From: Chthoniobacterales bacterium | GTDB lineage: Bacteria; Verrucomicrobiota; Verrucomicrobiia; Chthoniobacterales; Chthoniobacteraceae | Assembly (NCBI GenBank): GCA_041743065.1 | Contig: JBGTNO010000018.1 | Coordinates: 1-48,483 of the forward strand | DNA length: 48,483 nucleotides | Direction: 5' to 3' | Shown: piece after piece, positions 1-39,971 of the stretch | How the letters are laid out: every line of letters starts with the position of its first letter | Position numbering within the stretch: position 1 is the stretch's first letter | Notes under the pieces: generated by a model | What the model saw: only the letters and a program-made list of their open reading frames with translations | What the model was told of the DNA's origin: nothing | The model's database searches: none | Program-made: the position numbers and the translations under genes

Positions 1-376
1 GGCTAATATCTCGAATTTCTCGCCTTTCGGCTCCGGGAACCATTTCAAGACCCTGGGAAACTCGAGCTCTCCAACGAGATCCTCGCGCCATTTCCGCAAT
101 GTCTAGCCATTCTGATTTATCTGGAGATCCAACACCGTTGGGTGAGGTGTGTCAATAGCTGACCGCCAGCCTCCTCCTCTTGTTCAGAGCGATCAAGTCC
201 CACGCCCAAGCTTTCAATAGACCAAGGGCTTCGTGGGAGGTGTGCCTGAAACACCGAAATATCCGCCGTGAAATATCCTGCGGGTGTGACGCTTCAACGT
301 GCGTGGCTGCGGTGTTCGTTCTTTTTTGTCATATAGAGCGGCGCAGGCAATCTATGTAAGACCTGCGCCGCCATTT

Positions 377-450
377 CGCGGTCATCGTTCAAGAGCAGGA
401 TGCCTGGTTGCCAATCAGGCGATGCCGGTGCAATTCCGGCTGACCGCACC
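377..450 (+). tRNA. tRNA-Gly(GCC), non-canonical T-loop
   Basis: Acceptor GCGGTCA/TGACCGC; anticodon arm CCTGG-TTGCCAA-TCAGG; T arm GCCGG-TGCAATT-CCGGC; A73-CCA encoded. D-loop AAGAGCA lacks GG. Confidence 0.75.
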
Positions 451-473
451 ATTTTTCACTCATCATTATACCA

Positions 474-547
474 TACGGCGGGCGCCAGCTTGCGCAGCTC
501 GGTCTCCAAAACCAAGTGGGCTCGGGGCAGCACCGAGACGCCGTGCC
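474..547 (+). tRNA. tRNA-Trp(CCA), non-canonical T-loop
   Basis: Acceptor ACGGCGG/ACGCCGT (7:66 G.A); anticodon loop CTCCAAA; T arm CTCGG-GGCAGCA-CCGAG; G73-CCA. D region is irregular. Confidence 0.6.
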
Positions 548-559
548 ACTATTCAAAAA

Positions 560-632
560 TCGCGGGGGAGCCAGATGGGAAGGCAGCGGCCTCATAAGCC
601 GTCAACGAGCGGGTTCGATTCCCGCCCCCGCC
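560..632 (+). tRNA. tRNA-Met-type (CAU), canonical T-loop
   Basis: Anticodon arm GCGGC-CTCATAA-GCCGT; canonical T arm GCGGG-TTCGATT-CCCGC; D-loop with GGG. C1xC72 mismatch followed by 6 bp (initiator-like). A73 is followed by TCA, not CCA. Confidence 0.6.
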
Positions 633-643
633 ATCAATTTTAA

Positions 644-718
644 AGGGCCGCTAGATTAGTCAGGAAATCAGCCGGTTTGCACCCGGCAGTGCGGGGAGCA
701 TAGCCCCGGCGGTCCACC
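644..718 (+). tRNA. tRNA-Ala(UGC), non-canonical T-loop
   Basis: Acceptor GGGCCGC/GCGGTCC with G3.U70; D arm GATT-AGTCAGGA-AATC; anticodon arm GCCGG-TTTGCAC-CCGGC; T arm CGGGG-AGCATAG-CCCCG; A73-CCA. Confidence 0.8.
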
Positions 719-728
719 ATTTTTGTTA

Positions 729-840
729 AATCGCGGGAAGGTTGAGAACCCGACGCAACTGCGCCTTCGATGGACGCGGAGCGCATTCTGCGTAGCCGCC
801 GGAGCGGCAAAACCCGGGGAGTTTGGCTCCCGCCGATGCC
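729..840 (+). ncRNA. oversized tRNA-like unit, fold ambiguous
   Basis: 112 nt ending GCCGATG-CCA. Contains D arm GCGG-AGCGCATT-CTGC (775-790) and hairpin GCCGC-CGGA-GCGGC (794-807), homologous to unit 1796-1869. Acceptor pairing only 5/7; no 7-nt anticodon loop found. Confidence 0.3.
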
Positions 841-853
841 ATAGCGTTTCCCT

Positions 854-926
854 CTGTGAAGGGATGCGCTATCGCGCAGGCGTTCATAAGCTCTCTTATC
901 GTGGTGCGACTCCACGTCCCGCAACC
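854..926 (+). tRNA. degenerate tRNA-like unit with CAU loop
   Basis: T arm CGTGG-TGCGACT-CCACG; A73-CCA; loop TTCATAA. The anticodon stem has 2 mismatches and the acceptor needs a 2-nt bulge. Confidence 0.35.
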
Positions 927-934
927 ATTTCAGA

Positions 935-1022
935 TGCGGCGGTAGATCGCTAAAGACGCGAACCGGTCTGTAAAACCGGAGTCCTATCGGGCCGGTCGGG
1001 AGCGTTACCCGGACGCCGCACC
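935..1022 (+). tRNA. tRNA-Tyr(GUA), class II
   Basis: Acceptor GCGGCGG/ACGCCGC (7:66 G.A); anticodon arm CCGGT-CTGTAAA-ACCGG; 16-nt variable arm; T arm TCGGG-AGCGTTA-CCCGG; A73-CCA. Confidence 0.7.
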
Positions 1023-1023
1023 A

Positions 1024-1099
1024 CGGTCGTGGAGAGGATCAGCAGACTCGCCTGCCCGTCAAGCAGGAGACAGCGGGGGCAGCACCCGTCACGACCGCC
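1024..1099 (+). tRNA. tRNA-Asp(GUC), C33
   Basis: Acceptor GGTCGTG/CACGACC; anticodon arm CCTGC-CCGTCAA-GCAGG; T arm GCGGG-GGCAGCA-CCCGT; G73-CCA. Confidence 0.8.
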
Positions 1100-1108
1100 A
1101 TTTTCAGA

Positions 1109-1183
1109 CTTCCCCGTAGCTCAGCAGAAGAGCGCCGCTCTGCGAAGGCGGAGGCCGCTGGTGCGACTCCAGCCGGGGAAACC
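1109..1183 (+). tRNA. tRNA-Arg(GCG)
   Basis: Acceptor TTCCCCG/CGGGGAA; D arm GCTC-AGCAGAA-GAGC; anticodon arm CCGCT-CTGCGAA-GGCGG; T arm GCTGG-TGCGACT-CCAGC; A73-CCA. Confidence 0.8.
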
Positions 1184-1188
1184 ATTTA

Positions 1189-1263
1189 TCGGGCACGAGG
1201 AAGATAGCAATCCGCGCCGCTTGGGACGGCGAGACACCCGGAGCGTAACCGGGGTGCCCGACC
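1189..1263 (+). tRNA. tRNA-Pro(UGG)
   Basis: Acceptor CGGGCAC/GTGCCCG; anticodon arm CGCCG-CTTGGGA-CGGCG; T arm CCCGG-AGCGTAA-CCGGG; A73-CCA. Confidence 0.8.
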
Positions 1264-1272
1264 ATTTTCATT

Positions 1273-1337
1273 TGCTCCCGTGGCCGAGCAGAACAGAGGC
1301 ATCCGTCTTCTAAACGGAACAACGCAGGTGCAATTGC
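1273..1337 (+). pseudogene. 3'-truncated tRNA-Arg(UCU)-like unit
   Basis: 5' acceptor strand GCTCCCG; D arm GCC-(12 nt)-GGC; anticodon arm TCCGT-CTTCTAA-ACGGA; T-like hairpin CGCAG-GTGCAA-TTGCG. No complementary 3' strand before the next unit. Confidence 0.4.
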
Positions 1338-1416
1338 GGCTCCAGCCGCTATGCAATTTCCGCTCCGCGCCATGAGGGGGTGTGCTATCGCACCGGGCGT
1401 TCCTGCCGGGAGTGCC
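1338..1416 (+). pseudogene. degenerate tRNA-like unit, anticodon not assignable
   Basis: 3' end CGGGAGT-G-CCA pairs 6/7 with GCTCCAG (1338-1344) and 7/7 with GCTCCCG (1273-1279). Internal arms are poorly formed. Confidence 0.3.
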
Positions 1417-1431
1417 ATTTCAAAATTCCAA

Positions 1432-1506
1432 TTCCTCTCAATGCACAAAGTGTGCAGCCCGCCTGTTAAGCGGTGTGAGCCTGGTGCGATTCCAGGGGGA
1501 GGAGCC
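1432..1506 (+). tRNA. tRNA-Asn(GUU)
   Basis: Acceptor TCCTCTC/GGGAGGA; D arm TGCA-CAAAGTG-TGCA; anticodon loop CTGTTAA; T arm CCTGG-TGCGATT-CCAGG; G73-CCA. Confidence 0.8.
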
Positions 1507-1510
1507 ATTT

Positions 1511-1598
1511 TGGACAGTCAACCGGACCAGCGTGCCGGCGCCGGCCTGAACCCGGATGGAGCCGCAAGGCTTGAGGAGCATGTCCTCGGCTGTCCGCC
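1511..1598 (+). tRNA. tRNA-Ser(UGA), class II, C33
   Basis: Acceptor GGACAGT/GCTGTCC; anticodon stem CCGG/CCGG with loop CCTGAAC; variable arm AGCC-GCAA-GGCT; T arm TGAGG-AGCATGT-CCTCG. G73 is followed by CCC, not CCA. Confidence 0.65.
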
Positions 1599-1601
1599 CT
1601 T

Positions 1602-1725
1602 TTCCCGCGGTGTAACAGGCACACCTCGCGATTTCATAAATCGCAGATCTGGGTGCGATTGCCGCTTTAGGTTCGAAAGTAATTCAGGGGGGCTAACTCG
1701 CGTTGGCCGGTTCCCGGCGGGATCC
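1602..1725 (+). ncRNA. oversized (124 nt) tRNA-like unit with CAU anticodon arm
   Basis: Anticodon arm GCGAT-TTCATAA-ATCGC; T-like arm around TGCGATT with a G.G closing pair. 3' end GGCGGGA-T-CCA (1715-1725) pairs 6/7 with TCCCGCG (1602-1608). Confidence 0.35.
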
Positions 1726-1732
1726 AATTTCT

Positions 1733-1795
1733 CGCCCGCATGGTGCAAAAGCAGCACGTCTGGTTCTCAGCCAGAATGCTATGCGCGGAAGCGCT
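1733..1795 (+). pseudogene. tRNA-Glu(CUC)-like 5' body without own 3' acceptor strand
   Basis: GCCCGCA; D arm GTGC-AAAAGCA-GCAC; anticodon arm TCTGG-TTCTCAG-CCAGA; then GCGC-GGAA-GCGC hairpin in place of a T arm. Confidence 0.4.
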
Positions 1796-1869
1796 CACCT
1801 GCAACGCGGAGCGGTGACTGCATGGCGGCAGGAGCCGCAACACTCGGAGCATTACCAGGTGCGGGTGCC
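1796..1869 (+). ncRNA. anticodon-less tRNA-like RNA
   Basis: Acceptor ACCTGCA/TGCGGGT (7 bp); D arm GCGG-AGCGGTGA-CTGC; T arm CTCGG-AGCATTA-CCAGG; G73-CCC. The anticodon position holds GCGGC-AGGA-GCCGC (5 bp plus tetraloop). Confidence 0.45.
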
Positions 1870-1874
1870 CCTTT

Positions 1875-1948
1875 CCCCTCCATAGCTCAAAAGCAGAGCA
1901 CCCGGCCGATAACCGGGCGACCGGGGAGCATTACCTCGTGGAGGGACC
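1875..1948 (+). tRNA. tRNA-Ile(GAU), C33
   Basis: Acceptor CCCTCCA/TGGAGGG; D arm GCTC-AAAAGCA-GAGC; anticodon arm CCCGG-CCGATAA-CCGGG; T arm CGGGG-AGCATTA-CCTCG; A73-CCA. Confidence 0.8.
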
Positions 1949-1952
1949 ACTC

Positions 1953-2027
1953 TGGCTGCGTAGCTGAGAGAGATTAGCGCCTCGCTGAAGACGAGGAGAG
2001 TCCGGCGCGATACCGGACGCAGCCACC
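1953..2027 (+). tRNA. tRNA-Phe(GAA)
   Basis: Acceptor GGCTGCG/CGCAGCC; anticodon arm CCTCG-CTGAAGA-CGAGG; T arm TCCGG-CGCGATA-CCGGA; A73-CCA. Confidence 0.8.
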
Positions 2028-2036
2028 ATTTTTCAT

Positions 2037-2111
2037 CGCGTCATTGGTGTAACAGCAAGCACGGCGGTCTTCCAAACCGCGGGCGTCGGGGCAGCACCGG
2101 CATGGCGCACC
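2037..2111 (+). tRNA. tRNA-Gly(UCC)
   Basis: Acceptor GCGTCAT/ATGGCGC; D arm GTGT-AACAGCAA-GCAC; anticodon arm GCGGT-CTTCCAA-ACCGC; T arm GTCGG-GGCAGCA-CCGGC; A73-CCA. Confidence 0.8.
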
Positions 2112-2120
2112 ATTTTTCGA

Positions 2121-2197
2121 TTCCTCCGTGGCAGAGGTCAGCAATGCACTCCTCTCGTACAGGAGATCATGCCGGGGCAGCGCCGGCCGGAGGATCC
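2121..2197 (+). tRNA. tRNA-Thr(CGU)
   Basis: Acceptor TCCTCCG/CGGAGGA; anticodon arm CTCCT-CTCGTAC-AGGAG; T arm GCCGG-GGCAGCG-CCGGC; U73-CCA. Confidence 0.8.
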
Positions 2198-2204
2198 ATT
2201 TTAG

Positions 2205-2280
2205 TGGAGGTCGTGATGTAACAGCCAGCATTCGATCCTGTGAAGATCGCTGAGCGGGGGCAGCACCCGTCGACCTCCCC
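2205..2280 (+). tRNA. tRNA-His(GUG) with encoded G-1
   Basis: G-1 (2205) lies opposite C73 (2277). Acceptor GAGGTCG/CGACCTC; D arm ATGT-AACAGCCA-GCAT; anticodon arm CGATC-CTGTGAA-GATCG; T arm GCGGG-GGCAGCA-CCCGT; CCA. Confidence 0.8.
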
Positions 2281-2290
2281 ACTTTCATAA

Positions 2291-2366
2291 GCGCGCACAA
2301 GGCAAAGTCGTCGAACCGGCGGTCTGCAAAACCGCTTTACCCGGTGCGAGTCCGGGGTGCGCGTCC
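2291..2366 (+). tRNA. tRNA-Cys(GCA)
   Basis: Acceptor CGCGCAC/GTGCGCG; anticodon arm GCGGT-CTGCAAA-ACCGC; T arm CCCGG-TGCGAGT-CCGGG; U73-CCA. Confidence 0.75.
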
Positions 2367-2371
2367 ACTTT

Positions 2372-2442
2372 TGGGGCCATCACTGAAGAGCAGGATGGCG
2401 CATTCGCATTGCGTTGATCGGGGTGCAATTCCCCGTGGCTCC
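2372..2442 (+). tRNA. tRNA-Ala(CGC)
   Basis: Acceptor GGGGCCA/TGGCTCC with G3.U70; anticodon arm GCGCA-TTCGCAT-TGCGT; T arm CGGGG-TGCAATT-CCCCG; A73; no CCA. D stem is weak. Confidence 0.65.
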
Positions 2443-2451
2443 AGTTTTTTA

Positions 2452-2526
2452 TCGGGCACGAGGAAGACAGCAATCCGCGCCGTTCGGATCGGCGAGACAC
2501 TCGGGGCAGCACCGAGGTGCCCGACC
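2452..2526 (+). tRNA. tRNA-Pro(CGG)
   Basis: Acceptor CGGGCAC/GTGCCCG (same as 1189-1263); anticodon arm CGCCG-TTCGGAT-CGGCG; T arm CTCGG-GGCAGCA-CCGAG; A73-CCA. Confidence 0.8.
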
Positions 2527-2538
2527 ACTTTTCGAAAA

Positions 2539-2610
2539 CTCCGCCAAAGCGTAGGCAGCGACGCACCCGGTCGGTAACCGGGAGAGGCCGGTGCATGCCC
2601 GGCTGGCGGA
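2539..2610 (+). tRNA. tRNA-Thr(GGU), C33
   Basis: Acceptor TCCGCCA/TGGCGGA; D arm GCGT-AGGCAGCG-ACGC; anticodon arm CCCGG-TCGGTAA-CCGGG; T arm GCCGG-TGCATGC-CCGGC. U73 is followed by CGC. Confidence 0.7.
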
Positions 2611-2623
2611 TCGCTTTTCAGAA

Positions 2624-2761
2624 TCCCGGGGAAGAGCACCGGTCGCTCGTCAGCCTCAGAAGCTGGAGGCAGTTGGTTCGATTGCCAGCGTCTTCCGACG
2701 CTGCCCTTTGGGCTGTGCTGTCGCACAGGCTGTCTCGCCACTCGCTCCAACCCCCGGAACC
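2624..2761 (+). ncRNA. oversized (138 nt) tRNA-like unit with CAG anticodon arm
   Basis: D arm GAGC-ACCGGTC-GCTC; anticodon arm TCAGC-CTCAGAA-GCTGG; T arm GTTGG-TTCGATTG-CCAGC; then hairpins GCGTC-TTCC-GACGC and TGTGC-TGTC-GCACA. 3' end CCCCGGA-A-CCA pairs 6/7 with CCCGGGG (2624-2630). Confidence 0.35.
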
Positions 2762-2767
2762 ACTTTT

Positions 2768-2843
2768 ACGCTCCGTAGCATAACGAGCAGTGCGGCGGTC
2801 TCATAAGCCGTCAGGTGCTGGTGCGATTCCAGCCGGAGCGACC
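2768..2843 (+). tRNA. tRNA-Met/Ile2-type (CAU)
   Basis: Acceptor CGCTCCG/CGGAGCG; D arm GCAT-AACGAGCA-GTGC; anticodon arm GCGGT-CTCATAA-GCCGT; T arm GCTGG-TGCGATT-CCAGC; A73-CCA. Confidence 0.8.
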
Positions 2844-2849
2844 ATCTTT

Positions 2850-2941
2850 GGGAAGTTAAAGCGGACAAGCGAGCCGCCGCCGGTTGGAAGCCGGACAGAC
2901 CTCGACTTCGAGGTTGTGGAGCATGCCCACTGACTTCCGCC
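2850..2941 (+). tRNA. tRNA-Ser(GGA), class II
   Basis: Acceptor GGAAGTT/GACTTCC; D arm GCGG-(9 nt)-CCGC; anticodon loop TTGGAAG; variable arm ACCTCG-ACTT-CGAGGT; T arm GTGG-AGCATGC-CCAC; G73-CCA. Confidence 0.75.
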
Positions 2942-2946
2942 ATTCT

Positions 2947-3088
2947 TGGGTCGCAAGCATTGCAGTGATGCAGCGGTTTGACGCTCCGGCGTCCATGCTG
3001 TCAGTGCTCCGCGCCTTTGGAGAGGGGCGCTGCGCGCGCCCTGCATTCTTAAACCGCAGAGCGCGGGGCAGCACCGTGGCGACCCACC
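2947..3088 (+). ncRNA. oversized (142 nt) tRNA-like unit, no clean anticodon loop
   Basis: GGGTCGC (2947-2953) pairs with GCGACCC-A-CCA (3078-3088). D arm GCAT-TGCAGTG-ATGC; T arm CGCGG-GGCAGCA-CCGTG (3061-3077). The interior holds hairpins GACGC-TCCG-GCGTC and GCGCC-(10 nt)-GGCGC. Confidence 0.3.
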
Positions 3089-3093
3089 ATTCT

Positions 3094-3236
3094 TGGAAGC
3101 TGAACCGGACAGCCGAGCGCAGCGAGACAGCCAGCCTAACTTCCTTTCAAAACAATGCGGGCAACCGTGCCGGGACTGTTTCGAAAACAGATCGTTCCGC
3201 CTTGCGGAATGGGGAGCATGCCCTCCGGCTTCCGCC
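3094..3236 (+). tRNA. oversized unit containing a class II tRNA-Ser(CGA)-like body
   Basis: From ~3155: D arm CGG-(9 nt)-CCG; anticodon stem CTGT/ACAG with loop TTCGAAA; variable arm TTCCG-CCTTG-CGGAA; T arm GGGG-AGCATGC-CCTC; G73-CCA. The only complementary 5' strand (GGAAGCT) sits 54 nt upstream at 3094-3100. Confidence 0.45.
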
Positions 3237-3244
3237 ACTTTTTT

Positions 3245-3321
3245 CGCCAGCGTGGATGGACAAGAAATCTCACCGCTTTTGTAAAGCGGAGGATGCGGGA
3301 GCGTTACCCGCCGCTGGCTCC
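3245..3321 (+). tRNA. tRNA-Thr(UGU)
   Basis: Acceptor GCCAGCG/CGCTGGC; anticodon arm CCGCT-TTTGTAA-AGCGG; T arm GCGGG-AGCGTTA-CCCGC; U73-CCA. Confidence 0.75.
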
Positions 3322-3329
3322 ACTTCCAA

Positions 3330-3403
3330 TTGCCCCGTGATGTAACAGCAGCATAACCGGCTCTGACCCGGTTCGCGTTGGTGCGAATCCAGCCGGGGCA
3401 GCC
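3330..3403 (+). tRNA. tRNA-Gln(CUG)
   Basis: Acceptor TGCCCCG/CGGGGCA; D arm ATGT-AACAGCA-GCAT; anticodon arm ACCGG-CTCTGAC-CCGGT; T arm GTTGG-TGCGAAT-CCAGC; G73-CCA. Confidence 0.8.
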
Positions 3404-3417
3404 ATTTCTCCAATTCC

Positions 3418-3501
3418 TGCGCCGGTAGATCATCAGCAGATCGCCGCACCGATCCGCCGCGGCGGACGGAGGCAGGCGGGGCAGCACCGCCCCGGCGCAC
3501 C
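3418..3501 (+). ncRNA. anticodon-less tRNA-like RNA with extended central helix
   Basis: Acceptor GCGCCGG/CCGGCGC; D arm GATC-ATCAGCA-GATC; T arm GGCGG-GGCAGCA-CCGCC; A73-CCA. The central arm is a long helix (3448-3468, one bulge) capped by tetraloop CGCG; there is no 7-nt loop. Confidence 0.45.
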
Positions 3502-3509
3502 ATCTTCAA

Positions 3510-3585
3510 CGCTCCCGTAGCTCAACGTATAGAGCACCGCGCTTCGAACGCGGAGGTTGCAGGCGAAATTCCTGCCGGGAGTGCC
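3510..3585 (+). tRNA. tRNA-Arg(UCG)
   Basis: Acceptor GCTCCCG/CGGGAGT; D arm GCTC-AACGTATA-GAGC; anticodon arm CCGCG-CTTCGAA-CGCGG; T arm GCAGG-CGAAATT-CCTGC; G73-CCA. Confidence 0.8.
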
Positions 3586-3592
3586 ACCCTTC

Positions 3593-3667
3593 TCCCGGCG
3601 TAGCCCAATGCAGAGACAACGAGTTCAGACCTCGTTCAGTGCGGGTGCAAGTCCTGCCGCCGGGACC
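3593..3667 (+). tRNA. tRNA with Leu anticodon CAG, class I architecture
   Basis: Acceptor CCCGGCG/CGCCGGG; anticodon arm ACGAG-TTCAGAC-CTCGT; 5-nt variable loop; T arm GCGGG-TGCAAGT-CCTGC; A73-CCA. Confidence 0.7.
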
Positions 3668-3672
3668 ATTTT

Positions 3673-3747
3673 CGCTCCCGTAGCCCAACGCAGCAGAGGC
3701 AGCCGGCTTAAACCCGGCCAAGTGTCGGTGCGAATCCGACCGGGAGC
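3673..3747 (+). tRNA. tRNA with Leu anticodon UAA, class I architecture
   Basis: Acceptor GCTCCCG/CGGGAGC; anticodon arm GCCGG-CTTAAAC-CCGGC; 5-nt variable loop; T arm GTCGG-TGCGAAT-CCGAC; A73; no CCA. Confidence 0.7.
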
Positions 3748-3755
3748 ACGAGTTA

Positions 3756-3830
3756 AGCCCGCGTAGTCCAACGCAGAGACATCCGCCTCAAAAACGGACC
3801 AGTGCAGGTGCAAGTCCTGCCGCGGGCACC
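3756..3830 (+). tRNA. tRNA with Leu anticodon CAA, class I architecture
   Basis: Acceptor GCCCGCG/CGCGGGC; D arm GTC-(8 nt)-GAC; loop CTCAAAA on stem TCCG/CGGA; T arm GCAGG-TGCAAGT-CCTGC; A73-CCA. Confidence 0.7.
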
Positions 3831-3832
3831 AA

Positions 3833-3923
3833 AGGAACGTGAACCGGACAAGCGAGCCGGGATTCTTTGCTAAGGAAATCGATCCGCGCTGCGGATTGGG
3901 GAGCATGCCCTCCGCGTTCCGCC
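3833..3923 (+). tRNA. tRNA-Ser(GCU), class II
   Basis: Acceptor GGAACGT/GCGTTCC; D arm CCGG-(9 nt)-CCGG; anticodon loop TTGCTAA; variable arm ATCCG-CGCTG-CGGAT; T arm GGGG-AGCATGC-CCTC; G73-CCA. Confidence 0.75.
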
Positions 3924-3936
3924 ATTTTCTCCGTAA

Positions 3937-4017
3937 CGACCTCTCGTGGTGTAAAGCAGCACGAACGTCCTATGCCCGTTGAACCTGAGACGCGGGTACG
4001 AGTCCTGGCGGGAGGTC
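3937..4017 (+). tRNA. atypical tRNA-like unit, possible UAU anticodon, C33
   Basis: 10-bp terminal helix GACCTCTCGT/GCGGGAGGTC; D arm GTGT-AAAGCA-GCAC; stem AACG/CGTT with loop CCTATGC; 12-nt variable region; T arm CGGG-TACGAGT-CCTG; no CCA. Confidence 0.4.
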
Positions 4018-4028
4018 TTTTCCTTTAC

Positions 4029-4104
4029 TGCCCGTGAATGCAAAGAGCCGAGCGCCTCGCCTTTCAAGTGAGACCTAGCCGGTGCGAGTCCGGCCACGGG
4101 TGCC
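4029..4104 (+). tRNA. tRNA-Glu(UUC)
   Basis: Acceptor GCCCGTG/CACGGGT; anticodon arm CTCGC-CTTTCAA-GTGAG; T arm GCCGG-TGCGAGT-CCGGC; G73-CCA. Confidence 0.75.
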
Positions 4105-4111
4105 ATTTTCA

Positions 4112-4187
4112 TGCTCGCGTAGCCCAACAGTAGAGGCACTGCGTCGAGAGCGCAGCCAGTGCGGGTGCGAATCCTGCCGCGAGCACC
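4112..4187 (+). tRNA. tRNA with Leu anticodon GAG, class I architecture, C33
   Basis: Acceptor GCTCGCG/CGCGAGC; anticodon arm CTGCG-TCGAGAG-CGCAG; 5-nt variable loop; T arm GCGGG-TGCGAAT-CCTGC; A73-CCA. Confidence 0.75.
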
Positions 4188-4194
4188 ATTTGAA

Positions 4195-4268
4195 GGGGCC
4201 GAAAGCATTAAAGTGATGCAACGGACTTTTAATCCGTCGAACGGGGAGCATTACCCCGGCGGCCCACC
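4195..4268 (+). tRNA. tRNA-Lys(UUU)
   Basis: Acceptor GGGCCGA/GCGGCCC (7:66 A.G); D arm GCAT-TAAAGTG-ATGC; anticodon arm ACGGA-CTTTTAA-TCCGT; T arm CGGGG-AGCATTA-CCCCG. A73 is followed by CCT. Confidence 0.7.
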
Positions 4269-4269
4269 T

Positions 4270-4343
4270 TTCCCGAGTCGTCTAATAGGAGGACGCCTGG
4301 CCTACACCCAGGAGTCGGGGGAGCATAACCTCCACGGGCGACC
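4270..4343 (+). tRNA. tRNA-Val(UAC)-like, C33, weak acceptor
   Basis: D arm GTC-(9 nt)-GAC; anticodon arm CCTGG-CCTACAC-CCAGG; T arm GGGGG-AGCATAA-CCTCC; A73-CCA. The 5' acceptor strand pairs only 4 bp. Confidence 0.55.
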
Positions 4344-4598
4344 ATCTTTCCACTGGACTCAGTTCCAGCAGCCGACCGGCATCGCCGGATCCGGTTCTGC
4401 ATATCGGGAGTCCAGTGTCTGGCAAATCGGCGCAAGCCGACTGGGTTCGACTCCCATCATACGGGTCCGTGACGGTGACCAGCCCGGACCCAGTCGGGGC
4501 AGCCGCGACGCAGCCTGCGCGGGAGAGCCATTGCACTTTCGCCCGTTGCCGAGCCGCGGTCGCCGTCACGGGCCACAACTTTCAACCAAGGAGGAAAC
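4344..4598 (+). other. structured non-coding leader between the array and the first CDS
   Basis: 9-bp helix ACTGGACTC (4351-4359)/GAGTCCAGT (4407-4415) enclosing two hairpins. TCGGC-GCAA-GCCGA hairpin, then a canonical T-arm-like TGGG-TTCGACT-CCCA (4441-4455). GGGTCC/GGACCC helix (4462-4490). The ...GGGAGAG-CCA motif ends at 4529. RBS AAGGAGG at 4587-4593. Confidence 0.4.
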
Positions 4599-5405
4599 AT
4601 GAACATCGAATACATCATCGGCGGCATCATGGTCGCCATTGCCATCGCAGTGGCGGTTCGCACCGTGCGTGCCCGCTACCGTCACGAATACGTCGTCGCC
4701 GAAGGTTCCGTCGCGCTGATCTACCACGAGGGCAAACTCGCCGGTCGATGGGACGCGGGCCGCCACGTCCGCTGGGGCCGCCATTACCGCGTCGATCTAA
4801 TCGACGTGCGTAAGACGCTGCTCCAGGTCCAGGGTCAGGATGTCCTCAGCGCCGACAATGTCGGCGTGAAGGTCAGCCTCGTGCTCACGACTCAGATCGT
4901 CGATCCAGTCAAGAACGTGCAGAGCGTGGACAACTACGTTCTGCATCTCTACAGCGCCGCGCAGTCGGCGGTTCGCGCCGTCGTTGCGGGCGTCGCGATG
5001 GACTCGCTGCTCAACCAGCGGGTCGCCATCAGCGGCCAGCTTCTCGAACTGCTGGCACCCCAGGCCGAGGAAATCGGCGTGAAGGTGCACGCAGTCGAAG
5101 TCCGCGACGTAATGCTGCCGGGCGACCTACGCCGCGCCTTCTCCGAAGTGCTGAAGGCGAAGCAGGAGGGCCAGGCAGCGCTGGAACGTGCCCGTGGCGA
5201 GTCGGCCGCACTCCGCAACCTTGCAAATGCGGCGCGTCTCATCGAGAGCCAGCCGGGCGTGGCAACGCTGCGCTTCCTGCAGACGCTCTCCGGCAACGAC
5301 GCAAAGCAGATGGTTGTGATGAGCGACATGTCTGCTTTCGCGCCAGTGTTCAAGGGCCGCTCCGGAAGTCGGTCGGCAACTGAAACCGAGTCGGAGGAAA
5401 CCTAA
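4599..5405 (+). CDS. SPFH/band-7 (slipin-like) membrane protein
   Basis: N-terminal hydrophobic helix, then an SPFH core (VDLIDVRK...QDVLSADNV...AVEVRDVMLP...KAKQEG). ATG preceded by AAGGAGG. Confidence 0.8.
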   Translation: MNIEYIIGGIMVAIAIAVAVRTVRARYRHEYVVAEGSVALIYHEGKLAGRWDAGRHVRWGRHYRVDLIDVRKTLLQVQGQDVLSADNVGVKVSLVLTTQIVDPVKNVQSVDNYVLHLYSAAQSAVRAVVAGVAMDSLLNQRVAISGQLLELLAPQAEEIGVKVHAVEVRDVMLPGDLRRAFSEVLKAKQEGQAALERARGESAALRNLANAARLIESQPGVATLRFLQTLSGNDAKQMVVMSDMSAFAPVFKGRSGSRSATETESEET

Positions 5406-5509
5406 GATGCGAGGGAGGAAGGCACGCCCCGGCGGGGATTCGTCTCCGCCGGGGTGATGCGGCCCCCAAGCAATCAACCCCAATCACCAACATAGAAAGG
5501 AGGTTCCCC

Positions 5510-6286
5510 ATGCATGGGAACGAAGTCCTCAAGCGCGTCCGCCACGCGCTCGCTCAGGTCGAGGCCGAGCGGAACGTGCGCGTGCTTTTCGCGTGCGAGA
5601 GCGGCAGTCGGGCGTGGGGCTTTGCCTCGCGTGACAGCGACTACGACGTGCGCTTCCTCTACGTCCACCGGCGAGACTGGTATCTTTCAGTCGAGGATCG
5701 GCGCGACGTCATCGAACAGCCCATCGCCGATGATCTCGACGTGAGCGGCTGGGAGCTGCGCAAGGCGCTGCGGCTGCTCCGCAAGAGCAATCCGCCGTTG
5801 CTTGAGTGGCTGAAGTCACCGGTCGTGTATCGTCACGATCCGGTCTTCGCCGCCGAGTTCGGCGCGCTGGCGGCGGAGTTCTATTCGCCACGGCGCTGCT
5901 TCGCGCATTACCTGCACATGGCCTTCGGCAACTGGCGCGACTATCTGCGCGGTCGCGAGGAAGTGAGTCTGAAGAAGTATCTCTACGTCTTCCGTCCGCT
6001 GCTCGCGTGCCGCTGGATCGAGCGTCAGCTCGGTCAGGTGCCGATGCTCTTCGCGCAACTCGTGGAGAGCGTGCTCGACGAAGCCGACGTGCGCGCCGCC
6101 CTCGCGGAACTCGTCGCGCGCAAGCAGGCCGGCGAGGAGCTGGCTATCGCGCCTTCGGTCGAAGCGCTTTCGCGTTTCATCGAGGACGAGCTGCCAAGGC
6201 TCGAGGCGCTCAACGAGCCAGACGATGCCAAGGGCGAAGTGGAGGAGCTGAACGGCTTCTTCCGCCGCTACGCGCTCGCGGCTTGA
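5510..6286 (+). CDS. Pol-beta-fold nucleotidyltransferase, RlaP/COG3541-like
   Basis: N-terminal motif LFACESGSRAWGFASRDSDYDVRFLY is typical of the RNA-ligase-associated Pol-beta NTase family. Good RBS (AAAGGAGG). Confidence 0.65.
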   Translation: MHGNEVLKRVRHALAQVEAERNVRVLFACESGSRAWGFASRDSDYDVRFLYVHRRDWYLSVEDRRDVIEQPIADDLDVSGWELRKALRLLRKSNPPLLEWLKSPVVYRHDPVFAAEFGALAAEFYSPRRCFAHYLHMAFGNWRDYLRGREEVSLKKYLYVFRPLLACRWIERQLGQVPMLFAQLVESVLDEADVRAALAELVARKQAGEELAIAPSVEALSRFIEDELPRLEALNEPDDAKGEVEELNGFFRRYALAA

Positions 6287-6500
6287 CCACGCAACTGACG
6301 CCGTCCGGAGCCATCCGTTCCGGGCGGCGTCCTCATTTTCCACGAATCCAAACCTCAACCCATCCACATCAATGCAATCACATAAATCCATCTCCAAGCC
6401 GGGAGTCTCGCTGAGGCTCTCGAACCAAACTCAATCAGTCCGCGACGACATCCGCTCCGGCTTTCTGCCGGTGCCACGCGCGCGGTCAAAAACATAAAGT

Positions 6501-7307
6501 ATGAACTCAAAAACGATTGCGAATCAGTTCGCCCGCATGGACGCACGGTTCCGTGTCGTTCGTCCAGATGACCTGCCGCGGCGGCGTCAGCGCACCGACT
6601 ACGCGCTCGATATTGTCACCGATAAGCAGGGCCAACTTTTCGAGATGCAGCTTAGCGCTGAACGCGAGGCACAGCTCGAAATCGACGTGCTTCAATGCGA
6701 GCATCACGACCGGCATTTGCTCCTGCTTGTGAAAACGCCGGAGGCGAAGGATCGCTTCCTGTGCGGACACGACGAGCGGGAGTGGTTTGTCGCCGCGGTG
6801 CCCGGCGGTGCGTCAAGCGTGGTGCAGGCGAAGGTCGCTCTGCAACCAAGTGGAGCACGAGCCGCCGCCGATAGCGCCGGGCTAAACCTGCGTCAGCGCA
6901 CCCGCCGGCACAACCGAGCCTTCATCCGTCAGGGTGAATGGTTCTTCGTGCCCGTGCCGGAACTGCGCGTGGATGAAAAGTTCATCCTGCGCAACGAGCC
7001 GATCAGTCGCGGCGGCGGAAAGCCGCACCTCGTCGCTGAGCTTCACCGCTCCGGTGGCGAGAAGGTGTGGGTCTGCTCGCGTTATCCGAACGGTCTGACC
7101 GAATCGGACTACAAGCGGACGCTCGCGGACAACCGCGAGGCGAAGCGCTGGGGCTGGCAGCAGCGCGTCCGCAATGCGGGCGTGTTTGCGCGCGGTACCG
7201 TGCGTCACCGCGACCACGCGACGATCACGCTGCACAAGTGGCACCAGGTCTGGATGAACACCGAGAACACGACTCGTCAAATGGCGAACGTCGCATTCCT
7301 CGACTGA
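6501..7307 (+). CDS. hypothetical protein, no recognisable domain
   Basis: 268-aa ORF with coding-like composition, located between the NTase and rtcB on the same strand. Confidence 0.55.
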   Translation: MNSKTIANQFARMDARFRVVRPDDLPRRRQRTDYALDIVTDKQGQLFEMQLSAEREAQLEIDVLQCEHHDRHLLLLVKTPEAKDRFLCGHDEREWFVAAVPGGASSVVQAKVALQPSGARAAADSAGLNLRQRTRRHNRAFIRQGEWFFVPVPELRVDEKFILRNEPISRGGGKPHLVAELHRSGGEKVWVCSRYPNGLTESDYKRTLADNREAKRWGWQQRVRNAGVFARGTVRHRDHATITLHKWHQVWMNTENTTRQMANVAFLD

Positions 7308-7443
7308 GGAATGGCTTCAACGCAGCCGGGGAGGGTGACAAGCCTTCCCCGGCTGCATCTTTTCGACATAAAGAACAGACACCGCTGCGCACTCGGAGTG
7401 TGTCCGCACACCGCGCTCCTACTTTTCAATACGAACCACATCC

Positions 7444-8838
7444 ATGAACAACCAAGACCTCATCCGTCTCGGCGTGCCGCAGGGCGACGCCTTGAAACTG
7501 TCTCACGAACACATGCGCCGCCTGTTTGCTGGTGGACTCGATCGCGAGCAGGTCGAGGCCGAGATCTGCGACATCGTCGCAGATCCGCCGGCTTTCTTCG
7601 CCGACGAACTGCGTGCACCGCTGGCTCGTGCCCTCTACCGGCCGGCTTTTACGCCGCGCGCGGAACTCGCGCCGTGGCGTCAGTGGGGCGAGGGCCTTGA
7701 AGCCGAGGCGGTGAAGCAGATGGCGAATGCATGTGCGCTGCCGGTCGCGGTGGCGGGCGCGCTCATGCCGGATGCGCACGTCGGCTACGGCCTGCCGATC
7801 GGCGGCGTGCTCGCGACGGATAACGCGGTGATTCCTTACGCCGTCGGCGTGGACATCGGCTGCCGTATGAAAATGACCGTCTTCGATCGGAAGGTGAACA
7901 CGATTTCCGGGCAGAAGGATCGTCTCGCGAACATCATCGAGAGCGAGACGCGCTTTGGCGTGGGCTGTGAGTTCAAGCAGCGCCGCGAGCATGACGTCAT
8001 GGATGAAGACTGGGGCGTTTCCCCGGTCACACAGCGTCTCCGTGACAAGGCTTGGGCTCAGCTCGGAACGAGCGGAAGCGGCAATCACTTTGTGGAATTC
8101 GGAACTTTCACGGTGTCGGAGCCGGTGCTTGGACTGGATCCTGGAGAATACGTGGCGCTGCTCTCGCACAGCGGGTCCCGCGGCACCGGCGCTCAGGTTT
8201 GCCAGCATTACAGCCGCCTCGCTATGGATCGTCACGCGGATCTGCCAAAAGAGCTGAAGCATCTCGCGTGGCTCTCGCTCGATGAAGCCGCTGGCCAGGA
8301 ATACTGGGCCGCAATGAATCTGATGGGGCTCTACGCCGCGGCGAACCACGCGCTCATCCACAGGCACATCGCACGCAAACTCGGCGCGCATGTGGTCCTC
8401 GACATCGAGAACCACCACAACTTTGCGTGGAAAGAGCGCCATGAAATCGCCGGCGTGGAACGTGAAGTGATCGTCCACCGCAAAGGCGCGACCCCGGCGG
8501 GCGCTGGAGTGCTGGGTATCATCCCTGGCTCGATGGCGTCGCCCGGCTACGTCGTACGCGGCAAAGGCGAGCCGGAATCGCTGACCAGCGCTTCCCACGG
8601 AGCCGGCCGCGTGATGAGTCGGACGAAGGCGATGCAGTCCTTCACGTGGAGTGCCGTAAAGAAACTCCTCTCCGAGCGCGACGTGACGCTGCTCTCCGCG
8701 GGCCTCGATGAAGTGCCCGGCGTTGACAAGGACCTCGCACCAGTGATGGCCGCGCAAACCGACTTGGTCGAAGTGCTCGGTCGATTCGACCCGCGCCTGG
8801 TGAAAATGTGCCCGAGCGGCGAACGTGCGGAGGACTGA
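7444..8838 (+). CDS. rtcB: RNA 3'-phosphate/2',3'-cyclic phosphate ligase RtcB
   Basis: Motifs GSGNHFVEFG, HSGSRGTG, NHHNFAWKE, HRKGATPA, SASHGAGR. Confidence 0.9.
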   Translation: MNNQDLIRLGVPQGDALKLSHEHMRRLFAGGLDREQVEAEICDIVADPPAFFADELRAPLARALYRPAFTPRAELAPWRQWGEGLEAEAVKQMANACALPVAVAGALMPDAHVGYGLPIGGVLATDNAVIPYAVGVDIGCRMKMTVFDRKVNTISGQKDRLANIIESETRFGVGCEFKQRREHDVMDEDWGVSPVTQRLRDKAWAQLGTSGSGNHFVEFGTFTVSEPVLGLDPGEYVALLSHSGSRGTGAQVCQHYSRLAMDRHADLPKELKHLAWLSLDEAAGQEYWAAMNLMGLYAAANHALIHRHIARKLGAHVVLDIENHHNFAWKERHEIAGVEREVIVHRKGATPAGAGVLGIIPGSMASPGYVVRGKGEPESLTSASHGAGRVMSRTKAMQSFTWSAVKKLLSERDVTLLSAGLDEVPGVDKDLAPVMAAQTDLVEVLGRFDPRLVKMCPSGERAED

Positions 8839-9426
8839 ATGATGAGTGACGTACTGAACAAAACCACAGTGCTGGTGCTGAATCGAAACTGGCAGGCGAT
8901 CCACGTCAAAACGCCAACCCAGGCATTTTGCATGATGGCCGCCGATGTGGCGACCGCCCTCGACATCGAGGACACCGGCGGCATGCGTCCAGTGAAGTGG
9001 ACCGAGTGGCTCACTCTGCCGGTGCGCGCGGACGATAACTCCGTGCGCACCGTGCATGGGGCCGTGCGTGTTCCCACGGTCCTCGTGCTGGCGAACTACG
9101 CGAAGGTGCCGAAGCGGCGCCCGAAGTTCTCCGCGAAGAACATCTGGCAGCGGGACGGTGCGACCTGCCAGTACACGGGGCGCAAACTCGCGCCCCACGA
9201 AGGCAACATCGATCACGTAGTGCCTCGTTCACGCGGCGGTAGAACCGCTTGGGAGAACTGCGTTCTCGCCCACCGCGAGATCAACTCGCGAAAGGCAGAC
9301 AGGTTGCCCGAAGAAATCGGCCTGCGTCTGCGTCGGCAACCCGCCGCGCCACGAGAACTGCCTGCCACCATGCATATTCGCAATGCGCACAGCGTACGCG
9401 ACTGGGAGCATTTTCTGAAGTCGTGA
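8839..9426 (+). CDS. HNH endonuclease
   Basis: CQYTG...IDHVVPRSRGG...NCVLAHREINSRK (HNH/His-Me finger). The start abuts the rtcB stop codon. Confidence 0.8.
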   Translation: MMSDVLNKTTVLVLNRNWQAIHVKTPTQAFCMMAADVATALDIEDTGGMRPVKWTEWLTLPVRADDNSVRTVHGAVRVPTVLVLANYAKVPKRRPKFSAKNIWQRDGATCQYTGRKLAPHEGNIDHVVPRSRGGRTAWENCVLAHREINSRKADRLPEEIGLRLRRQPAAPRELPATMHIRNAHSVRDWEHFLKS

Positions 9427-9674
9427 TCCGGAGAAGCTTGCGCCCAGACCTGCGCAAATCGCCGAAGTTCAATAATTGTGGCGATATAAGAGGAAAAGGA
9501 ATAGTCCTTCTGAATCTGTGAAACGACTGTAGGGGTTGGGGGAGAAGCTGCGATCTGCGGCATATACTGAACGGACCCTAACCCGAGAAGCCTTCCCAGG
9601 CTTGTCGCTTGTGCCGGATCTCTCAACGATGCACGCTCGTTCCGACAGTGATGATAATCCGATCAATTCGCGTA

Positions 9675-34449: not shown

Positions 34450-34501
34450 CGAACGGCAGTTCTCGGACATTGGCAATGACTCATGACACGAGGGACTATC
34501 C

Positions 34502-36258: not shown

Positions 36259-36477
36259 CGTGCGAAGGGGGGTAGCCTCTTCCAGACACACCATAGTCCG
36301 GGGAGCGATAAAACTGCATCAATGATTCCGGCGTAAGAGAGTCCTGGTGCTGCCGTCCACCGGCGTTGAATTGAAGGGACTGGCGCTCACGCGCCATCGA
36401 TGTTGTGATCCAGGGCCAGCAGCCGCTGCGAGAGGCTGCTGCAAACGGATTTCGCCCTAATCTTGCTTTTCCCGACG

Positions 36478-37737: not shown

Positions 37738-37748
37738 AACTCCCTGCT

Positions 37749-38907: not shown

Positions 38908-38921
38908 TATTCTCCCGAACC

Positions 38922-39569: not shown

Positions 39570-39596
39570 CGATCTGGGATTGAAGGTCTGTTTCAA

Positions 39597-39965: not shown

Positions 39966-39971
39966 CCAACC

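Follow-up and report, generated by a model that had tools for sequence, protein, structure and literature searches.

A 48,483-nucleotide stretch of DNA from a Chthoniobacterales bacterium (contig JBGTNO010000018.1; the whole stretch is called the window below) carries at 378-4343, on the + strand, a head-to-tail array of 41 tRNA units (3.97 kb, ~10 per kb) that covers all 20 amino acids and stands between a conserved leader and an apparent operon of RNA-repair genes. In ~90% of the units of this array family, a predicted A18-G55 pair replaces the near-universal G18-U55 pair at the tRNA elbow, with the predicted G19:C56 and 54-58 pairs retained. We propose, with about an even chance of being right, that the array is a backup tRNA set linked to RNA repair and induced by stress or attack.

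Earlier publications describe long tRNA arrays (L-arrays), also in Verrucomicrobia, and associate them with rtcB; the locus described here, which bears on what such arrays do, ties one of them to RtcB, RlaP and Band-7/Ro genes in an apparent operon. Literature searches, with many subscription papers beyond reach, turned up no description of the leader, of a full array fused to a Band-7/Ro-RlaP-RtcB operon, or of the A18/G55 elbow. A full decoding set with A18-G55 would be a natural experiment in tRNA architecture, and one that recurs in hundreds of Verrucomicrobiota tRNAs and in many phage arrays. All functional statements made below rest on computation.

The tRNA array and its units

The ARAGORN and Rfam searches proposed in an earlier note on this DNA, which had been made from its letters without database searches, returned a minority of the units: ARAGORN with default settings reported 12 + strand tRNAs lying from 378 to 4188, and RF00005 at its gathering score reported 14 units when the whole window was searched and 16 when the search was limited to 1-5200. 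Both tools miss most units because these are systematically non-canonical, and with only 12-16 units the locus would in routine annotation fall short of an array unit in the sense of Tran et al. (2016, PMC4758250), which asks for 20 or more tRNA genes with 2 or more of them per kb. A18/G55 tRNAs would fall into an annotation blind spot, the standard tools finding 12-16 of 41. A simple stem-counting cloverleaf scan found ~25 clean class-I cloverleaves, and R1, a covariance model trained on 24 array units and confined to class-I tRNAs, matched 33 times at E<0.01, always on the + strand and inside 378-4340, the other 44 kb of the window giving no match; four of the strong R1 matches (the units at 2292, 2373, 3419 and 4271) lie outside the training set. 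With 41 units, 33 of them significant with R1, the locus has the size of an array unit as defined above.

The earlier note had described a large array of ~45 units; its extent and its coverage of all 20 amino acids stand, and the count becomes 41, which includes the long-arm units (Tyr and four Ser) and the interrupted units, resolved through uninterrupted orthologues. About 30 units appear intact, and this intact set alone spans all 20 amino acids. The anticodon list given in that note was likewise complete for amino acids; it had missed the interrupted Lys-CUU unit and extra Leu-CAG-type units. Spacers between units measure 1-25 nt and the orientation is the same throughout, as in L-arrays. 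In most units an encoded N73-CCA precedes a T run, and the variant tails noticed before are indeed present (TCA at 633, CCC at 1597 and 1868, CGC at 2611, CCT at 4266). For comparison, 80 loci were recovered by search with the neighbouring RlaP protein (designated L001 and so on where a locus has to be named), and these yielded 443 distinct array units from ~40 related Verrucomicrobiota arrays, of which 365 (82%) encode CCA. We found no convincing terminator within the array: terminator matches were at chance level, and the sole + strand match consisted of a tRNA arm plus spacer. The tRNA genes of the array are probably co-transcribed. The units are as follows, with Rfam (RF00005) and R1 scores in bits.

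378-451, +: unit 1, tRNA-Gly(GCC); T-loop TGCAATT, D-loop AAGAGCA (A18/G55); ARAGORN; Rfam 51.6; R1 65.1
474-548, +: unit 2, tRNA-Trp(CCA); T-loop GGCAGCA, G73, one acceptor mismatch; cloverleaf fold; R1 only 16.4 (E 0.077)
561-636, +: unit 3, tRNA-Met(CAT), initiator-like (C1 x C72), tail TCA; no other uninterrupted unit has the canonical TTCGATT T-loop and GG D-loop; ARAGORN; Rfam 48; cloverleaf scan
645-719, +: unit 4, tRNA-Ala(TGC); G3:U70, T-loop AGCATAG; ARAGORN; cloverleaf scan; R1 55.9
731-927, +: unit 5, CAT tRNA (C1 x A72), interrupted, probable pseudogene; uninterrupted orthologues in L008 and L002; repeat similarity
936-1023, +: unit 6, tRNA-Tyr(GTA); long variable arm, T-loop AGCGTTA; ARAGORN relaxed; R1 24.1; fold
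1025-1100, +: unit 7, tRNA-Asp(GTC); G73, T-loop GGCAGCA; cloverleaf scan; R1 62.4
1110-1184, +: unit 8, tRNA-Arg(GCG); T-loop TGCGACT; ARAGORN; Rfam 61.7; R1 75.8
1190-1264, +: unit 9, tRNA-Pro(TGG); C1:G72, A73, T-loop AGCGTAA; cloverleaf scan; R1 64.2
1274-1417, +: unit 10, tRNA-Arg(TCT), interrupted; orthologues in L014 and L002; repeat alignment; R1 partial match 27.9
1433-1507, +: unit 11, tRNA-Asn(GTT); G73, D-loop CAAAGTG, T-loop TGCGATT; cloverleaf scan; R1 56.5
1512-1599, +: unit 12, tRNA-Ser(TGA); long arm, tail CCC; fold; not significant with R1 (class-I only)
1603-1726, +: unit 13, CAT tRNA, degenerate; ~50-nt insert, imperfect stems; sequence and fold
1734-1873, +: unit 14, tRNA-Glu(CTC), interrupted; tail CCC; an uninterrupted L008 orthologue (~4273-4341) matches both flanks; repeat copies elsewhere
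1876-1949, +: unit 15, tRNA-Ile(GAT); T-loop AGCATTA; Rfam 45.6; R1 73.5
1954-2028, +: unit 16, tRNA-Phe(GAA); T-loop CGCGATA; Rfam 45.7; R1 65.4
2038-2112, +: unit 17, tRNA-Gly(TCC); T-loop GGCAGCA; Rfam 41.3; R1 62.0
2122-2198, +: unit 18, tRNA-Thr(CGT); U73, T-loop GGCAGCG; cloverleaf scan; R1 60.9
2206-2281, +: unit 19, tRNA-His(GTG); G-1 opposite C73; cloverleaf scan; R1 56.5
2292-2367, +: unit 20, tRNA-Cys(GCA); U73, T-loop TGCGAGT; R1 50.9 (outside the training set); fold
2373-2443, +: unit 21, tRNA-Ala(CGC); G3:U70, without encoded CCA; ARAGORN; Rfam 34.3; R1 48.5 (outside the training set)
2453-2527, +: unit 22, tRNA-Pro(CGG); C1:G72, A73; cloverleaf scan; R1 61.2
2540-2614, +: unit 23, tRNA-Thr(GGT); U73, tail CGC; cloverleaf scan; R1 67.1
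2625-2762, +: unit 24, decayed initiator-like tRNA (C1 x A72, canonical TTCGATT); intact tRNA-Met(CAT) as orthologue in L047
2769-2844, +: unit 25, tRNA-Met/Ile2(CAT); T-loop TGCGATT; ARAGORN; Rfam 57.2; R1 75.4
2851-2942, +: unit 26, tRNA-Ser(GGA); long arm; ARAGORN relaxed; kept in L002, L008 and L047
2948-3089, +: unit 27, tRNA-Lys(CTT), interrupted; orthologues in L002, L008 and L047 uninterrupted; repeat alignment
3095-3237, +: unit 28, tRNA-Ser(CGA), interrupted; insert absent from the L002, L008 and L047 orthologues; L043 has a similar long form
3246-3322, +: unit 29, tRNA-Thr(TGT); U73; ARAGORN; Rfam 36.4; R1 65.1
3331-3404, +: unit 30, tRNA-Gln(CTG); U1:A72, G73; ARAGORN; Rfam 48.9; R1 67.1
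3419-3502, +: unit 31, tRNA-like; anticodon arm rearranged to a long hairpin (anticodon loop CCGACAT, GAC for Val, in the L008 and L005 orthologues); R1 47.6; fold
3511-3586, +: unit 32, tRNA-Arg(TCG), G55/A56 class; T-loop CGAAATT, D-loop AACGTATA; Rfam 59.6; R1 66.8
3594-3668, +: unit 33, tRNA-Leu(CAG); 5-nt variable loop, A73; ARAGORN; Rfam 38.7; R1 61.3
3674-3751, +: unit 34, tRNA-Leu(TAA); short variable loop, tail CGA; ARAGORN; Rfam; R1
3757-3831, +: unit 35, tRNA-Leu(CAA); short variable loop; ARAGORN; Rfam; R1
3834-3924, +: unit 36, tRNA-Ser(GCT); long arm; ARAGORN relaxed; fold
3940-4019, +: unit 37, atypical; anticodon loop CCTATGC, without CCA; absent from relatives, whose alignments jump over 3928-4029; cloverleaf scan; R1 15.9
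4030-4105, +: unit 38, tRNA-Glu(TTC); G73; cloverleaf scan; R1 50.6
4113-4188, +: unit 39, tRNA-Leu(GAG); short variable loop; ARAGORN; Rfam 45.4; R1 68.1
4196-4269, +: unit 40, tRNA-Lys(TTT); tail CCT; Rfam 35.8; R1 63.6
4271-4343, +: unit 41, Val(TAC)-like; weak acceptor and D-arm; Rfam 23.7 (below threshold); R1 37.8; fold

Two sets of statistics bear on whether these units are maintained. Across 141 distinct units, 94.7% of the stem cells hold standard pairs, and the covariation score is 0.937, compared with 0.20 for shuffled and 0.10-0.15 for slid partners, in an alignment that was fitted to the model and so somewhat inflates the score. In the related arrays, G3:U70 is present in 20 of 20 Ala units and in none of the 423 others, C1:G72 with A73 in 22 of 22 Pro units, U73 in all Cys (16/16) and Thr (24/24) units, G73 in every Asp, Asn, Glu and Trp unit, and A73 in 73 of 73 Leu units. 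Since synthetase identity elements track the anticodon, selection as chargeable, decoding tRNAs is implied rather than a collection of pseudogenes, and the pattern indicates that the array tRNAs are under selection for charging and decoding. Nearly all of the Leu units (70/73) have a 5-nt variable loop, as do those of the Anabaena and Mycolicibacterium alvei plasmid arrays; such short-loop Leu units lie at 3594-3831 and 4113-4188 of the window and in L082 and L083, and the housekeeping tRNA-Leu in L038 has a long arm. To our knowledge, the long variable arm is universal in bacterial tRNA-Leu.

Seven units (5, 10, 13, 14, 24, 27 and 28) are 124-197 nt long and carry inserts of 50-130 nt, and their orthologues in close relatives (L002, L008, L014 and L047) are ordinary uninterrupted tRNAs. 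Four of the inserts are copies of a ~68-nt GC-rich repeat, two in each orientation: the segment 751-883 of unit 5, which replaces 9 nt of the orthologue, holds a forward copy; the reference copy occupies the variable region of unit 14 (1776-1843); and reverse copies follow the T-loop of unit 10 (1336-1401) and fill the anticodon loop of unit 27 (2978-3045). The other three are unrelated to the repeat, namely ~50 nt after the T-loop of unit 13 (about 1661-1710), 63 nt after the T-loop of unit 24 (2684-2746), a unit in which the anticodon CAT has become CAG as well, and ~50 nt within the D-arm of unit 28 (about 3120-3170). The units at 3419, 3940 and 4271 are also decayed or atypical. Units of this kind had been called atypical before, correctly; what had been overlooked are two specific causes, the systematic A18/G55 elbow and the small-repeat insertions. 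The conserved leader and the immediate connection to a Band-7/RlaP/RtcB operon had likewise gone unremarked.

In archaea and animals RtcB serves as the tRNA-splicing ligase, and a gene for it lies 3 kb downstream, which, together with the length of the inserts, would favour reading the long units as intron-containing genes whose exons are joined by the adjacent ligase. We give this almost no credence and rejected it, as the orthologues are uninterrupted, the insert sites vary between D-arm, anticodon loop, variable region and the position after the T-loop, and the inserts either belong to a dispersed repeat found in both orientations, also between genes and inside RlaP genes elsewhere, or are mutually unrelated; they thus lack the conserved positions, conservation among orthologues and strand specificity of introns, and one of the interrupted units has a mutated anticodon besides. 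The observations indicate that the interrupted units are insertional knock-outs rather than introns, and the ~68-nt repeat behaves like a miniature mobile element. Further copies of it were seen at L012:9625-9692 and 10087-10154 and in L050, L007, L008, L017, L047 and L048, some in the spacers of genes; in L012 (and probably L050) it lies within or beside the RlaP coding sequence, and an over-long RlaP match in L053 may reflect the same.

The A18-G55 elbow

Few nucleotides in biology are as conserved as G18 and U55. Almost all window units have a T-loop of the form N-G-C-R-N-N-N (for example TGCGATT, GGCAGCA or AGCATTA) in place of T-T-C-R-A-N-N, and D-loops with A-G-C/T (for example AACAGCA) in place of G-G. 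Set against canonical elongators (Rfam RF00005), the units possess the cloverleaf, the 7-nt anticodon loop and the acceptor and identity elements, and about 90% of them depart from G18G19 and T54-U55-C56 by A18 and G55.

The 443 related units show the same substitution as a coordinated one. Of these, 401 have G and 36 have U at position 55, position 56 is C in 94%, and positions 54 and 58 covary (T-A in 250, G-G in 83, C-A in 42, A-T in 33). The D-loop follows the T-loop: all 33 of 33 U55C56 units have a GG D-loop, compared with 26 of 379 G55C56 units, 282 of which have AG followed by C or T, and a minor G55A56 class has a GTATA-type D-loop in 20 of 20 cases. In an unsupervised mutual-information scan of 141 distinct units in a model-based alignment, the best partners of positions 55, 56 and 54 were 18, 19 and 58, respectively, D-loop numbers here resting on alignment to canonical loops and on covariation. 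Because 18-55, 19-56 and 54-58 are the classical tertiary pairs, the contacts that make the L-shape would be preserved, with G18-U55 turned into A18-G55. Outside arrays, the related contigs yielded seven stand-alone tRNAs, every one with TTCRA and GG loops; one of them is a normal long-arm tRNA-Leu.

Comparison with homologues narrows the change to the same two positions. The tRNA-Asn of Caulobacter phage CcrRogue has loops CAAGGTG and TTCGATT, and those of window unit 11 (CAAAGTG and TGCGATT) differ from them only at 18 and 55. For Leu-TAA, the M. alvei unit has D-loop AACCAGGTAG and T-loop TTCGAAT, whereas the window unit has AACGCAGCAG and TGCGAAT, and the same two changes separate it from its Streptomyces phage homologue. 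We considered whether A18/G55 might be a general trait of known L-arrays or cultured phage arrays and rejected this, the arrays of Anabaena, the M. alvei plasmid, Streptomyces phage CeilingFan, Tunturi_5 and CcrRogue all being canonical. The units of the Anabaena array have canonical TTCRA T-loops and GG D-loops, with one unannotated exception, whereas 90% of the window family is A18/G55. We also note that two of the units involved here lack annotation in their published records: the tRNA-Asn(GTT) of CcrRogue (L206:5003-5076), and a G55-type Ile(GAT)-like unit with a GGCAGTA T-loop at the end of the Anabaena trn array (L082, reverse strand, 5508-5578, on plasmid delta of Nostoc PCC 7120).

A pattern scan of IMG/VR, which required two adjacent TGCRA T-arms and is in this way biased toward the variant, so that it shows existence and not frequency, recovered at least 120 viral contigs. 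Among the matches listed there were 876 units, of which 433 were G55C56 (88% without a GG D-loop) and 372 U55C56 (97% with GG); some of these arrays were wholly G55 and others mixed, and GC content ranged from 0.30 to 0.69. A18/G55 arrays in uncultivated viral contigs mean that the elbow variant is not confined to Verrucomicrobiota.

Relatives, the repair operon and its structured RNAs

The closest RlaP loci belong to Chthoniobacterales and Verrucomicrobiales, and most of them have an array upstream of RlaP on the same strand. Array-leader-RlaP synteny spans these two orders, over RlaP identities from 97% down to 63%, and gene content is syntenic across 40 or more loci. Within this syntenic distribution in Verrucomicrobiota there is presence/absence variation, the close relatives L001, L019 and L038 having no array. 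In Chthoniobacter flavus Ellin428 (L019), a cultured type strain, only a lone G55-type Lys unit without CCA (L019:2615-2685) and one weak model match stand upstream of the Band-7/RlaP/RtcB operon, which suggests a loss of the array in this strain. The canonical stand-alone tRNAs in relatives' contigs, and these absences, indicate that the window array is probably supernumerary and not the housekeeping set. This agrees with the earlier note, which had taken it for a supernumerary-looking array of the kind known from phages, integrative and conjugative elements (ICEs) and cyanobacterial plasmids, and the homology to the Mycolicibacterium and Anabaena arrays supports the same view.

The Anabaena L-array (Santamaria-Gomez et al. 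2021, PMC8421152) likewise comprises dozens of closely spaced, same-strand tRNA genes that encode CCA, and comes in addition to a housekeeping set, as the window array probably does; it is silent until translation is impaired, is then induced with rtcB, hen1-pnkp being induced as well, and aids survival. Both it and the window array are linked to rtcB and hen1-pnkp, by neighbourhood or regulon, and the HNH protein beside it is 43% identical to that of the window over a 77-residue HNH region (E 3e-20). In the array of the M. alvei plasmid pJCM12272, a run of four units, Arg-Leu-Leu-Leu, aligns at 68% with window 3511-3832, and the neighbouring HNH, HEAT-repeat and WGR genes are of the same types as in the window. 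Single window units match tRNAs of Streptomyces and Caulobacter phages; in Streptomyces BE-cluster phages, a tRNA-Leu is 83% identical to the window Leu-TAA unit, and the phage has Ro-like and nucleotidyltransferase genes. The syntenic run, the HNH gene and the short-arm Leu units indicate that the array shares descent with the L-array lineage, and its homologues in Actinomycetota plasmids and phages imply an old transfer. The known L-arrays are scattered sporadically, whereas the window array is fused to a repair operon behind a conserved leader and keeps this synteny over two orders; the mycobacterial plasmid and actinophage arrays (Morgado & Vicente 2018, PMC5966550) have canonical elbows and no Band-7/RlaP/RtcB operon directly downstream.

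The features that accompany the array are these.

235-328, +: conserved leader, found in 23 sequences (22 loci and the window) from two orders
337-372, +: GC-rich hairpin between the leader and the first tRNA, from sequence and comparison with relatives
4344-4598, +: structured non-coding RNA (~250 nt) between the array and Band-7
4599-5405, +: SPFH/Band-7 protein (Pfam PF01145, E 2e-28)
5510-6286, +: RlaP, RNA-repair-pathway nucleotidyltransferase of the Pol-beta family (Pfam PF10127, E 4e-92; phrog_14344)
6501-7307, +: conserved operon protein of unknown family, syntenic in relatives; no match in Pfam, NCBIfam, PHROGs or PDB
7444-8838, +: RtcB RNA ligase (Pfam PF01139, E 1e-81)
8839-9426, +: HNH endonuclease (Pfam)
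19737-25308, +: second RNA-repair module (Pfam), with Hen1 at 19737-21137, a HEAT-repeat protein at 20888-22756 and Pnkp at 22741-25308

Band-7, RlaP and RtcB lie in one apparent operon (4599-8838), which places the locus among the Band-7 (or Ro/TROVE)-RlaP-RtcB systems; protein set and gene order match, and an RNA with a T-arm stands directly upstream of Band-7. RlaP has been proposed to rebuild trimmed RNA ends (PMC6514570). Band-7 and TROVE/Ro scaffolds appear interchangeable in the operon; in a Prosthecobacter locus, a TROVE/Ro60-type protein replaces Band-7 between the array and RlaP (L027:8482-9909).

Conservation with relatives begins abruptly at window 235, with a leader of 95-115 nt that reads GGGAGGTGTGCC..AAACACCGAAA..CCGCCGTGAAA..CCUGCGGGUG, then a variable hairpin and UGGCAGCGGUGUUYGUUCUUUU; it combines long invariant stretches with a hairpin of variable length and a U-rich end (further examples are L002:6216-6311 and L027:1115-1230). 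Pairs of the variable hairpin have 6-8 compensatory changes each, and the remaining predicted helices are invariant. The leader has no match in Rfam, and a sigma-70 consensus scan found no promoter-like site at it. It may be a regulatory RNA or an operator, and is a candidate for the control of both the array and the repair operon. The hairpin at 337-372, already pointed out in the earlier note, is real: compensatory changes maintain it in L002, L005, L008 and L047, and a different hairpin takes its place in Prosthecobacter loci.

The RNA at 4344-4598 has 63 predicted pairs, 18 of them with compensatory changes among six sequences, and includes a canonical T-arm (GGGTTCGACTCCC) and a GCAA-capped stem; relatives of it were found at L006:7611-7872, L010:961-1215 and L048:928-1192. 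In Rfam it had only a weak, non-significant match to Deinococcus Y RNA (20.7 bits). It occupies the slot held in Burkholderia operons by the tRNA associated with band 7 (b7a-tRNA), which bioRxiv 10.1101/312249 and PMC6514570 attribute to Burroughs & Aravind (2016, NAR gkw722), and in other bacteria by YrlA-type RNAs, and unlike the Burkholderia RNA it does not fold as a simple cloverleaf. The RlaP operons of Burkholderia and Xanthomonas carry a single tRNA-like RNA whose anticodon stem is capped by a GNRA tetraloop, whereas the window has a decoding set of ~41 tRNAs in front. We considered the array as an amplified b7a-tRNA and rejected this: the Burkholderia RNA has canonical loops and no anticodon, and in the window the separate T-arm RNA fills its slot.

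Possible roles of the array, and the rest of the window

If the array is a backup set coupled to repair, transcription would run from the leader through the array, the T-arm RNA, Band-7, RlaP, the protein of unknown family, RtcB and HNH. The locus would be turned on through the leader when translation is attacked or stalled, as by tRNA-cleaving toxins of phages or competitors or by ribosome-targeting antibiotics, and would supply a complete spare tRNA pool together with RtcB to re-seal and RlaP to rebuild broken tRNAs. The elbow could contribute to this, as we infer, since G55 could not be converted to pseudouridine by TruB, A18 would not be methylated by TrmH as G18 is, and nucleases that read or cut a canonical T-loop would not recognise A18/G55 tRNAs; the G19:C56 stacking face, which RNase P, the ribosome and T-boxes use, would be left intact. 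Toxins that cut the T-loop include the Burkholderia E479 CdiA-CT class, which reportedly cleaves between 54 and 55. Phage T5 tRNAs reportedly escape host anticodon nucleases through changes in the anticodon loop. The concept is the same, a translation-competent set altered at a nuclease-recognised site, but the alteration in the window lies at elbow positions 18 and 55 and not in the anticodon loop. A cultured carrier, Prosthecobacter fluviatilis KACC 12649 (L036), makes the idea of spare tRNAs plus repair directly testable.

Several points weigh against this proposal. Expression, processing and charging of the array tRNAs are predictions, and resistance of A18/G55 tRNAs to any nuclease or modification enzyme is purely inferred, with no elbow-directed toxin encoded in, or known for, these hosts. 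Canonical elbows suffice in the known L-arrays, so that an array can function without the elbow change. The sigma-70 scan identified no promoter for the array, and the leader, being invariant apart from one hairpin, could be a DNA operator instead of an RNA. Band-7 is missing between the array and RlaP in some relatives, such as L002. Of the 41 units in this genome, 7 are disrupted and another 3-4 degenerate or atypical, which suggests relaxed selection on part of the array.

The wide occurrence of the elbow variant invites a broader interpretation, which we find doubtful while taking it seriously, in which A18-G55 would mark 'stealth' tRNAs as a widespread lineage of their own, borne by phages and by bacterial defence or repair islands, competent in decoding and invisible to readers of the canonical elbow, with Verrucomicrobia having domesticated one set; if so, tRNA arrays would be weapons and shields in a conflict over the tRNA elbow. 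A plainer account takes the locus for an ordinary L-array remnant of a phage, plasmid or ICE, its elbow neutral or a historical inheritance from phages and the repair genes merely sharing an island. The viral contigs with A18/G55 tRNAs, at least 120 in number and several with entirely G55 arrays, fit this account, as do the close phage families of RlaP and HNH. GOLLD RNA is known from phages, and one lies embedded in the tRNA array of an uncultured Verrucomicrobiaceae (L020:8291-8719; Rfam RF02032, 160 bits); a phage-type DUF5131 gene stands upstream of the L047 array. We nevertheless consider simple phage inheritance unlikely: the array, leader and RlaP have stayed together over two orders and down to 63% RlaP identity, drift is hard to invoke for ~40 tRNAs per array with the same double change and tight 18-55 covariation, and the window contains neither phage structural genes nor an integrase, the latter as the earlier note had observed.

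The array RNAs might instead serve mainly outside translation, as decoys for tRNA-targeting toxins, or as cofactors or substrates of the Band-7/Ro-RlaP-RtcB proteins after the manner of b7a-tRNA or YrlA. A sponge role has been proposed for the Anabaena array (PMC8421152), the Burkholderia and Xanthomonas operons do carry one anticodon-less tRNA-like RNA, and both unit 31 and the RNA at 4344-4598 are tRNA-like without a usable anticodon. We judge this rather improbable, since neither role needs a complete, non-redundant set of anticodons, strict synthetase identity elements or encoded CCA, and a dedicated cofactor-like RNA with a canonical T-arm (4344-4598) is present separately. That the array is a graveyard of tRNA pseudogenes, or the organism's only, housekeeping tRNA set, might be thought from the rejection of most units by standard tools and from the several clearly broken ones, but is in our opinion extremely improbable: the covariation and identity-element statistics point to purifying selection, related genomes have canonical stand-alone tRNAs, and some close relatives have no array.

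Elsewhere the window encodes helicase and WGR proteins and contains an NAD-salvage cluster, accompanied by an ADP-ribosylglycohydrolase, as well as a group II intron. The cluster (33883-43799) encodes a PnuC-type transporter, NadR-like, NAPRTase, PRPP-synthetase-like and isochorismatase-family (nicotinamidase-type) proteins and NrtR, and adjoins both a second Band-7 gene and the ADP-ribosylglycohydrolase; taken with the two RNA-repair modules, it looks like an island of damage-reversal functions. A serpin gene is split into overlapping frames (9609-10103 and 10016-10945), by a frameshift or a sequencing error. At its right edge (47544-48476, - strand) the window includes the group II intron, represented by its domain V/VI RNA (Rfam, 46.6 bits) and a truncated reverse-transcriptase/maturase open reading frame.

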